Shown here: piece by piece, positions 531 to 63,989 of the stretch
How the letters are laid out: every line of letters starts with the position of its first letter
How positions within the stretch are numbered: position 1 is the stretch's first letter
NCBI GenBank assembly: GCA_964016885.1
Contig: OZ024740.1
Coordinates: 44,888,001-44,952,000, forward strand
Reading direction: 5' to 3'
Source of the DNA: Eledone cirrhosa
Taxonomy: Eukaryota
Length of the DNA stretch: 64,000 nucleotides
Translations under genes and position numbers: made by a program
Notes under the pieces: model-generated
Seen by the model: the letters and a program-made list of their open reading frames with translations, nothing else
Told to the model about the DNA's origin: nothing
Databases searched by the model: none

Positions 531-2469
531 CTATGCGAGATTCTGTCTGGGTTACAATTTCTGTGAAATTAACAACAGAATAAATTAACAGTTGTTTCAT
601 CAATTAGTGAAATAAACAAATCTTAATGTTCCTAGTTTCATGAATTGTATCAGTAAATCGACTCGGAAGCATGTGTCAACACATTTTTTATATCATTTAC
701 CTATGTATATAACTTAATAAAACAAATAAAGTTAAATATTTAATACATTGTCGAATAATAGATTTTACATGTCTCTCTATATATATATTAAAGAAATTCA
801 TACTTATACATAATTAAACTAATTTCTATACAATATTTAATGTTACATTACTATTCATAACACTATTCAGAGTATAGTAGTCCTTTATGTAATCAAATTA
901 ACAAAGACTTACCAACTGTGGCTTCTGCTGCCTCAGTAGGTTGTTCTGAATATGGAATAAAAGTTGGAATGAGATTTATTATCATTTACAAAAATATTAT
1001 ATACGTAGAAACACTAATCGTCTAACTGCACTGCCATATTTTACAAGATATTTTCGAATACGCAATAAATATTTTCGCAATTTCAAATATGTAGAGACGT
1101 TTGAAGATATACGCCAATTACTAATCCAAAGAAAGTAAATTATTCATAGTAAAATAGACTAACAATATTTTATTTTAAACTTTATTCAGTTTCAAAAGTT
1201 ATTTTTTGTATTATCCAATAATATTTGCACACGAACATTTGACATCTAATAGAGTGTGAGAATATTTTAACATTATTATAGAGTATTTATAGATTATTCT
1301 GGAAGCAATAATTGCAAACTCAGTTTAGAAATAGAAACTCAGATATATAGTAGTAATATCGAAAATATAATCTCGCTCACCTTTAGGACGCTCTTCTTGT
1401 GCCACAATATCTGTGAAATTTTATTAAAAAAATGTAACTAAATCTCGCGCAAAGGTATAGGTTTAACGTTAAATCAGTTAAAGTTTTAAAACGGACGTTT
1501 GAAAGTGTTATAGTTTTACTAGTGCATGCGAGATTTGAGAGAACCAAATCTTTCAATTATATAACTGAATGTTTCAATTACATTGAAATCATACAAAAGC
1601 ATCAATTTAAAACATTAACGGCAACATGTATTTGCTAACCCAACATACAATGAATGAAAATAAAAACACAAAATATATCCGAGATATATTGATGAAAACA
1701 TGCGATTTGTAATACTGAAATGCGAAAAGGCTACAAGACATTTATGAAACAACATTGAAACACTGACGTCATTATAATACTACATAACAAGCTATGTATA
1801 CTATTGCCCTAAAATATGCTATAATATAAAATCATATACGTTCTCGACAGTATTGATTATTAAAACACACTTAATTTTATTATGAAGTTATATGAACATC
1901 AGAAGTTACTATAATAATTTAATAGATTATATAATATCATTCATATATGAATTATTGCTATATCTCTTCCTTCGTAACAGAACTACTACACAAGAACAAA
2001 AAGACACCATATGAAACTCAGCGACAAGCAGAAACAAGAAGTCATTAAATATAATCCCTCACTCACCAACTGTAGATTCCACCTCAGAACGTGTTTCTGG
2101 TGAAAACAAAAGTAAATATAAACCCCCATCAGTAACATTATATAGAATAATTGTTTCTACTTTAGGCACAAGGCCAGCAATTACCTAGTGCATTACTGGT
2201 ACTTTATTTTATATAGAATAATGACTGTCAAGCACTTAAAATGTTAAGAAAGGACAGATTATTTCTGAGTCCTTTATCATTTTAAAAGAAATATAAAAAC
2301 TTATTAAAACTTTCTAACTTGTAGAAAGCATTATCTTTTAATAAAGAAAACAATTCTTTGATATTTTAATCGCAGAATTCTGATATATTATATCGTTATG
2401 TTGATACATAGTAAGAGGAATAAATCTGCAAAAGCTTACCTGTACGAGTTATTTTTTCTGTTACAACCT
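531..2469 (-). CDS. Diverged cassette L1 (5 exons)
   Basis: B 531-560 EIVTQTESRI; C 913-945 (33 nt) EQPTEAAEATV; D 1381-1410 DIVAQEERPK; E 2067-2096 ETRSEVESTV; F 2440-2469 EVVTEKITRT; all GT-AG. Confidence 0.9.

Positions 2470-63989: not shown

Follow-up and report, generated by a model that had tools for sequence, protein, structure and literature searches.

The length of the PEVK segment tunes stiffness via splicing in titin and in insect projectin (PMC6469411, PMC3835035). In titin (TTN) this segment consists of more than 100 short tandem exons, acidic and of low complexity, placed between runs of Ig domains; it grew by exon duplication and varies in length, 113 exons being annotated in the human PEVK and a P+E+V+K fraction of about 0.54 being the cut-off used for its exons (PMC6469411). 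Human titin has 363 exons in all (PMC12198301). The PEVK of projectin, too, is of low complexity, undergoes alternative splicing and stands between two tracts of Igs; it has at most 624 aa and draws on up to 21 alternative exons, most of it is non-repetitive, and its host is projectin/twitchin (PMC3835035). Runs of very short exons, multiples of three in length and separated by long introns, also characterize the micro-exon genes (MEGs) of schistosomes, which have 10-20 micro-exons and a signal peptide, and encode small secreted products (10.1101/2023.06.21.545858).

Obscurin, UNC-89 in nematodes, sits at the M-line, and its nematode SH3 domain binds paramyosin (PMC4865318), and the interkinase linker of UNC-89 is a measured entropic spring (10.1101/2020.04.03.023374). 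A 2026 review distinguishes two layouts among bilaterian obscurins (PMC12812942): the RhoGEF comes first in ecdysozoans, and Igs precede it in chordates. Octopus obscurin kinases have already been annotated and used in trees (PMC12198301). We describe here, in the octopod Eledone cirrhosa, an array of 256 open micro-exons that interrupts the Ig run of this gene. In the literature searched, chiefly open-access, neither a micro-exon array nor the repeat is described in a cephalopod obscurin, and a 256-exon repeat of fixed exon size inside obscurin seems undescribed, while published domain figures or RefSeq octopus models may show part of it.

Structure and extent of the array

The window, i.e. 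the whole stretch of 64,000 nucleotides analysed, covers positions 44,888,001-44,952,000 of contig OZ024740.1 (C1 below) within a 3.0-Gb genome. A search of the window finds all six peptide words of the array on the minus strand only; a single filter (AG, 30 nt, then GTA or GTG, open in phase 1) returns 100 candidates on this strand versus 1 on the plus strand, and the same filter set to other exon lengths returns 0-16 candidates each. Additional 21- and 36-nt exon types in the core were considered and rejected, both peaks being a single intronic site repeated 13 times.

The part of the array lying in the window (531..63989, minus strand, as are all exons below) totals 104 copies of six types, A to F. 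Examples of the types are A at 61836..61865, B at 61488..61517, C at 61045..61074, D at 60560..60589, E at 60175..60204 and F at 59830..59859. Intact 30-nt exons number 101 (A15, B16, C18, D19, E17, F16); the others are an in-frame 33-nt variant of type D (913..945), an in-frame 12-nt remnant of type E that kept both splice sites (25063..25074), and a dead type A copy deprived of its donor site (29772..29801). The open exons are thus 103, in phase 1, and every exon measured in the array is of phase 1-1. The introns between them range from 213 to 8,708 nt with a median of 374.

These counts bear out the initial annotation, which from the letters alone had announced some 103 intact-looking exons, nearly all of 30 nt, ending in G (242 of the 244 intact 30-nt exons array-wide do so) and occupying about 5% of the window (4.8% measured). 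Its in silico splicing to some 1,000 aa is reproduced, the 101 30-nt exons giving 1,009 aa without a stop, and a hand count agrees with the residue numbers and the net charge of -9 that it gave for the 60-residue repeat. The fixed order of the six types holds less strictly: A-F is kept, with departures only at local duplications between 28.2 and 25.1 kb of the window.

Mobile elements also populate these introns. The 8.7-kb intron harbors two ORFs: one for a LINE-type reverse transcriptase (window 11081-13618, minus strand; Pfam RVT_1, E 7e-31), the other resembling a retroelement but matching nothing in Pfam (8592-9755, plus strand). An interspersed element of about 200 bp, probably a SINE, is present at 3421-3620, 4325-4516, 16108-16304 and 27024-27196, its copies being 87-98% identical.

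The array overruns the window by 38 kb past the left end and 115 kb past the right end: from C1 45,066,522 (5') to C1 44,849,654 (3'), it holds 264 copies, 256 of them open, over about 217 kb. Seed and PWM scans gave 256 copies over 214 kb, among which 244 intact 30-nt exons, and a gapped search found eight further open variants (24, 27, 39 nt) plus four remnants, as well as one D-like match on the opposite strand. The PWM, run over 1.05 Mb, gives 252 minus-strand sites with a score above 14, every one of them lying between two Ig runs; the plus strand yields no such site. In the whole genome the type-F pattern matches 30 times, each time (30/30) at this locus, and by this pattern search the array is found nowhere else.

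Two very different parts are seen in the window. From 29.8 kb rightward (29800..64000) extends a homogeneous core of tandem units of 2,914-2,916 bp carrying exons A-F, 11 full units in the window and 16 in all, which are 98.8-100% identical to a central unit, introns included. Left of 29.8 kb (531..29453) the units, which belong to the 3' flank of the array, are old and diverged: their exons are conserved, their introns are far apart, and purifying selection is the strongest there. Beyond the window, the 5' end of the array (C1 45,042,000-45,067,000) repeats three times a unit of about 9.4 kb with exons of 39, 27 and 30 nt, and type C has been lost from many units of the 5' flank (A-B-D-E-F, C1 45,025,000-44,975,000). 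At the 5' edge of the core (C1 44,966,773) stands a type-C variant of 24 nt whose donor is GC. In a type-B copy at C1 45,006,600 both splice sites are intact but a TAG interrupts the frame, so that this copy has to be skipped, unless it works as a poison exon or reflects an allele or an assembly error. Three sequencing runs of one sample match the assembly at the checked stretch, where the differences amount to a single base and one repeat indel; these runs cover introns unbroken, so that they are DNA and not RNA. For the history of the array we propose that a pair of 10-residue exons would have been triplicated into the six-exon unit, itself amplified by unequal crossing-over, the latest round involving the 2.9-kb unit.

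The host gene

The initial annotation had advised a walk along the flanking DNA in search of Ig, FN3 and kinase exons. We read 990 kb of flanks, and Ig runs, 16 FN3 and two kinases are there, all domains being on the strand of the array (minus) in what is probably one gene of about 884 kb. From 5' to 3' come 19 Ig ORFs (C1 45,195,997-45,071,854; 16 Ig exons preceded by three Igs and an acidic exon), the array, 30 Ig exons and a broken one (C1 44,848,603-44,761,440), SH3-RhoGEF-PH (C1 44,756,745-44,731,719, with Pfam SH3_2, RhoGEF and SOS1_NGEF_PH in order), a PEVK-type exon (C1 44,725,797-44,724,754), about 5 Igs, 16 FN3 (C1 44,711,863-44,438,055), 2 Igs, and a C-terminal block (C1 44,358,940-44,312,224) made of kinase 1, linker, Ig, FN3, kinase 2 and tail. 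The array is therefore flanked on either side by a run of Ig domains, each encoded by one exon, and is N-terminal to SH3-RhoGEF-PH.

The Pfam domains SH3, RhoGEF, PH, I-set, fn3 and Pkinase follow the obscurin order on one strand. The best PDB match of the SH3 is obscurin (1v1c, E 3.6e-20; next best 3e-5). When set by eye against a published alignment, the kinases share 49/56 and 50/55 residues with OBSCN A and OBSCN B of Octopus sinensis, and are unlike Os_CON, Os_twitchin, Os_TRIO and Os_MYLK of the same alignment. Ig-profile matches are 57 on the minus strand versus 0 on the plus strand in 864 kb, and three more were found besides; the interkinase FN3, missed by Pfam, was detected by our own profile alone (E 0.0016). 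Within 224 kb of the RhoGEF block no kinase was found, and a genome search placed the kinases further on. SEC14 and spectrin repeats, as at the N-terminus of Trio/Kalirin or connectitin, were not noticed among the filtered ORFs of the 156 kb above the first Ig, a filter that short exons escape.

Titin/connectin, Sallimus and twitchin have a single kinase, of titin or twitchin type, and are not known to carry a RhoGEF. The present gene has a RhoGEF-PH and two OBSCN-type kinases, and these matches, together with the SH3, designate by sequence an octopod obscurin/UNC-89, not titin or Sallimus. The titin/Sallimus-like assignment of the initial annotation must consequently be abandoned, while its more general idea, a frame-preserving acidic repeat built of micro-exons inside a giant Ig/FN3 muscle protein, is supported.

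With C. elegans UNC-89, Drosophila obscurin, vertebrate OBSCN and O. sinensis XP_036361934.1 the gene shares SH3-RhoGEF-PH, Ig and FN3 domains as well as the C-terminal kinase-linker-Ig-FN3-kinase, the kinases being nearly identical to those of O. sinensis. It differs from them by the 256-exon repeat inside the Ig run and by the 16 tandem FN3 before the kinases, to our knowledge unusual for obscurins. With all exons the protein would reach about 12,000 aa (our ORF sum), to be compared with 8,081 for UNC-89, and our tally of at least 350 candidate exons rivals the number in human titin. As to the two layouts mentioned above, 49 Igs precede the RhoGEF in this mollusc, an arrangement that the review assigns to chordates only (PMC12812942).

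Other features of the gene deserve mention. In the Ig run 3' of the array, C1 44,813,900-44,793,500 is a recent tandem of a 2,010-bp unit containing one Ig exon, in about ten copies; the eight compared are 99.3-99.8% identical, and Argonauta shows a parallel expansion. The PEVK-type exon just after the PH, a single exon of 1 kb, is a second low-complexity segment, 81% P/E/V/K. Of the 16 FN3 exons, 12 are clustered and the others are spread across 250 kb of long introns. Kinase 2 is altered at catalytic-loop and DFG-site residues, as is O. sinensis OBSCN B, so that it may be a pseudokinase; the nematode case is the reverse, PK1 being the inactive kinase. Finally, in an Ig tree (49 rows, 89 columns, ten rows less than half filled) the octopod array Igs fall into one group with most of the Obsl1-type Igs of fish (99/99) and are separated from the flanking Igs, a placement compatible with shared ancestry as well as with a shared short-hairpin Ig type.

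Does the array belong to this gene? It could form a separate gene nested in or beside obscurin, for instance a secreted one of schistosome type or an Obsl1-like one with Igs only: vertebrate obscurin genes do split into separate genes (PMC12812942), and the corresponding locus of Argonauta is annotated as several partial models. Yet the strand and phase of the array are those of the flanking Ig exons (the five measured have 267-273 nt and are of phase 1-1 like the micro-exons). Moreover one protein of Owenia, P0002, bridges both sides: it matches an Ig 5' of the array at 52%, then SH3-DH-PH-Ig on the 3' side, in order, which places the array inside one gene. An Argonauta model, GAB1597548.1 (P0004), also joins the repeat and the Igs in frame. 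All this makes a separate gene highly improbable. The bridge provided by Owenia runs as far as the post-GEF Igs; from there we infer from the architecture that the 5' half is linked to the kinases across large introns. The schistosome-type combinatorial secreted protein, the other option of the initial annotation, fails on the same flanks, in-phase Ig exons of an intracellular giant whose gene would span about 884 kb. From MEGs, whose short multiple-of-three exons and long introns it recalls, the array further differs by its roughly 260 exons and by purifying selection.

Selection on the micro-exons

Could the array be a non-coding intronic satellite? Near-perfect tandem copies of the 2.9-kb unit fill half of the window, and chance AG..GT sites recur in every one of them; since tandem copying multiplies chance sites too, the core alone proves little, and the diverged units carry the argument. 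When 144 diverged copies are compared with a core copy, ungapped identity is 89% in the exons and 97% at donor positions +1 to +6, versus 37-49% in nearby intron; with gaps, substitutions per site are 0.11 in exons versus 0.30 in nearby intron. With each distinct change counted once, a change is seen for 39/52 of the possible synonymous transitions and 27/74 of the synonymous transversions, against 47/107 and 43/237 of the non-synonymous ones, a synonymous excess with p 3e-4 for transitions and 2e-3 for transversions. A caveat on these counts is that the copies have a common descent and were detected through the similarity of their exons. The pairwise dN/dS is 0.46, a value not relied on as all pairs share one reference. 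Length variants that have both splice sites are all multiples of three (8/8: 12, 24, 24, 27, 27, 33, 33, 39; four truncated donor-less remnants are excluded from this count), compared with 45/165 intron indels. The conservation of exons and splice sites where introns diverge, the synonymous excess, the frame-keeping indels and the same units in another octopod family, that of Argonauta, leave hardly any credit to the satellite, in which the exon look would be chance multiplied by copying. The micro-exons are very probably coding exons of obscurin.

The micro-exons are under purifying selection, unevenly along the array. In the 3' flank 63/64 copies are open, with a ratio of 0.32 (p 1e-8); in the core 99/99 are open; in the 5' flank 86/93 are open and 7/93 dead, one of them by a stop between intact splice sites, with a ratio of 0.64. 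The dead copies and the weaker constraint of the 5' flank suggest that part of the array may be drifting.

This possible drift brings us to another reading, where a functional linker, small at first, has grown through tandem amplification that was nearly neutral; most of its copies would be skipped or tolerated, and the length of the array would have no function in itself. The core units, 98.8-100% identical including their introns, the recent tandem growth that the array's 5' end has in common with the Ig exons, and the concentration of dead copies in the 5' flank all go in this direction; neutral turnover is discussed for titin PEVK-C as well (PMC6469411). On the other hand the 3' flank remains constrained despite its diverged introns, as seen from its open copies and ratio, and Argonauta retains at least 42 units. 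We hold such an inflation for quite improbable.

Conservation in Argonauta

The first 480 residues of the Argonauta hians model GAB1597548.1 are the same 10-residue-spaced units, 67% identical and in frame with the same Igs; 42 units score at least 22, when shuffles give 2.5 and at most 6. This annotation is a prediction mixing RNA-seq, homology and ab initio evidence, not a cDNA. The split between Argonauta and Octopus dates back at least to about 29 Ma (fossil calibration given in the Argonauta paper). In Owenia P0002 only 4 weak units are found, with shuffles up to 3, and neither the repeat nor the long Ig run is present; this model may be a short isoform. Beyond Argonauta, no homologue of the repeat was found among the 8,000 best shorter candidates, an Atlas search with the repeat had no usable match, and all matches of a HMMER search (5/5) are unrelated low-complexity proteins.

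A proposed acidic linker adjustable by splicing

The open exons sum to about 2,500 residues, with 24% E, 17% T, 14% V, 9% S and 5% proline. The net charge of the repeat is -0.16 per residue and its hydropathy of 0.41 falls on the disordered side of the boundary (0.47), so that the repeat is likely disordered as judged from charge and hydropathy. The layout of the array is that of a PEVK, many short frame-preserving exons between Ig tracts. Its composition is not: P/E/V/K make 0.48-0.50 of the repeat, below the titin cut-off, which the exon after the PH passes with 0.81. Compared with the titin PEVK the gene is another one, the exons are 256 versus 113, and they have a fixed size of 30 nt in a six-exon super-repeat rich in E/T/V/S with 5% proline. 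The resemblance to the titin PEVK is an analogy, not a homology, and convergence is the best reading for the acidic linker.

We propose that the block of obscurin micro-exons encodes a mostly disordered linker whose length is tunable by splicing, a mechanism to which, as a whole and by analogy with titin and projectin, we give a probability of roughly 0.6. As every measured exon is of phase 1-1, skipping never shifts the frame and dead copies cost nothing; any subset of exons could then be skipped, giving from 0 to about 2,500 residues. At about 0.36-0.38 nm per residue for a chain, the latter would span up to 0.9 micrometre. The product would be a mostly disordered polyacidic chain serving as a length-adjustable tether or entropic spring. 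The N-terminal arm, an Ig run, the acidic linker and another Ig run, would reach from the middle of the thick filament to a distant anchor, the linker length being set by splicing as in the titin and projectin PEVK.

The same exons and gene might however encode an amphipathic beta structure, each pair of exons forming a long strand and a proline turn: a ribbon or a solenoid, or a beta-zipper binding segment, possibly in need of Ca2+ or of a partner, and acting as a stiff ruler or as a shock absorber that folds and unfolds. Skipping exons of ten residues keeps both the frame and the strand register. Acidic residues occupy odd positions of the units in 15/30 cases and even ones in 1/30 (9/24 versus 1/30 without the first residue, forced by splicing; p 0.003), V/I/T/S prefer the even positions (21/30 versus 7/30), and in Argonauta the acidic parity is 109/225 versus 5/225. 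The period-2 moment has p 0.006 for the D+E strand, but for the F+A and B+C strands it is not significant (p 0.24). Prolines come near the start of every second unit. Among five single-sequence AlphaFold models of a 161-aa stretch of Argonauta one, the best, is all beta, with seven strands of 12-17 residues, pLDDT 71.6, and turns mostly on the proline units. The remaining four have pLDDT 32-47, however, and for repeats AF2 reportedly produces beta-solenoids that are confident but invented (PMC11795689). When the beta model was used to search for similar folds, no match was convincing (Z 5.3 at best, rmsd 9.3, 79 aligned). In addition the net charge is unfavorable to stacking, the parity would not survive variants of odd length (9, 11, 13 aa), and the loss of type C breaks the odd/even alternation in the 5'-flank units concerned.

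A beta repeat is unlikely, though the main competitor of the disordered linker. The disorder foreseen by the initial annotation agrees with charge and hydropathy; what goes against it is the strict alternation of acidic and V/I/T/S residues, as well as the all-beta model. A more speculative combination, which we also regard as unlikely, would make the obscurin of octopods, at about 1.3 MDa, a second filament of the titin kind, whose micrometre-scale adjustable segment is a splice-built beta repeat and not a PEVK coil; muscles would dial the number of strands, and Ca2+ or a partner would switch between coil and ribbon.

Concluding remarks

The host gene is known and the precedent is clear in titin; the repeat in obscurin seems to be the new element. 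The locus is a case of gene finders splitting one gene into many pieces, and with its fresh core, constrained 3' flank and decaying 5' flank the array is a compact model in which exons can be seen to arise, become homogenised and die. The chordate-like layout of obscurin in a mollusc would go against the current two-type picture. If the array is expressed, a titin-style segment tunable by splicing would have evolved a second time, in obscurin, and in animals whose arms and mantle are muscular hydrostats; it would be a candidate for how octopod muscles set their passive stiffness or the spacing of their filaments.
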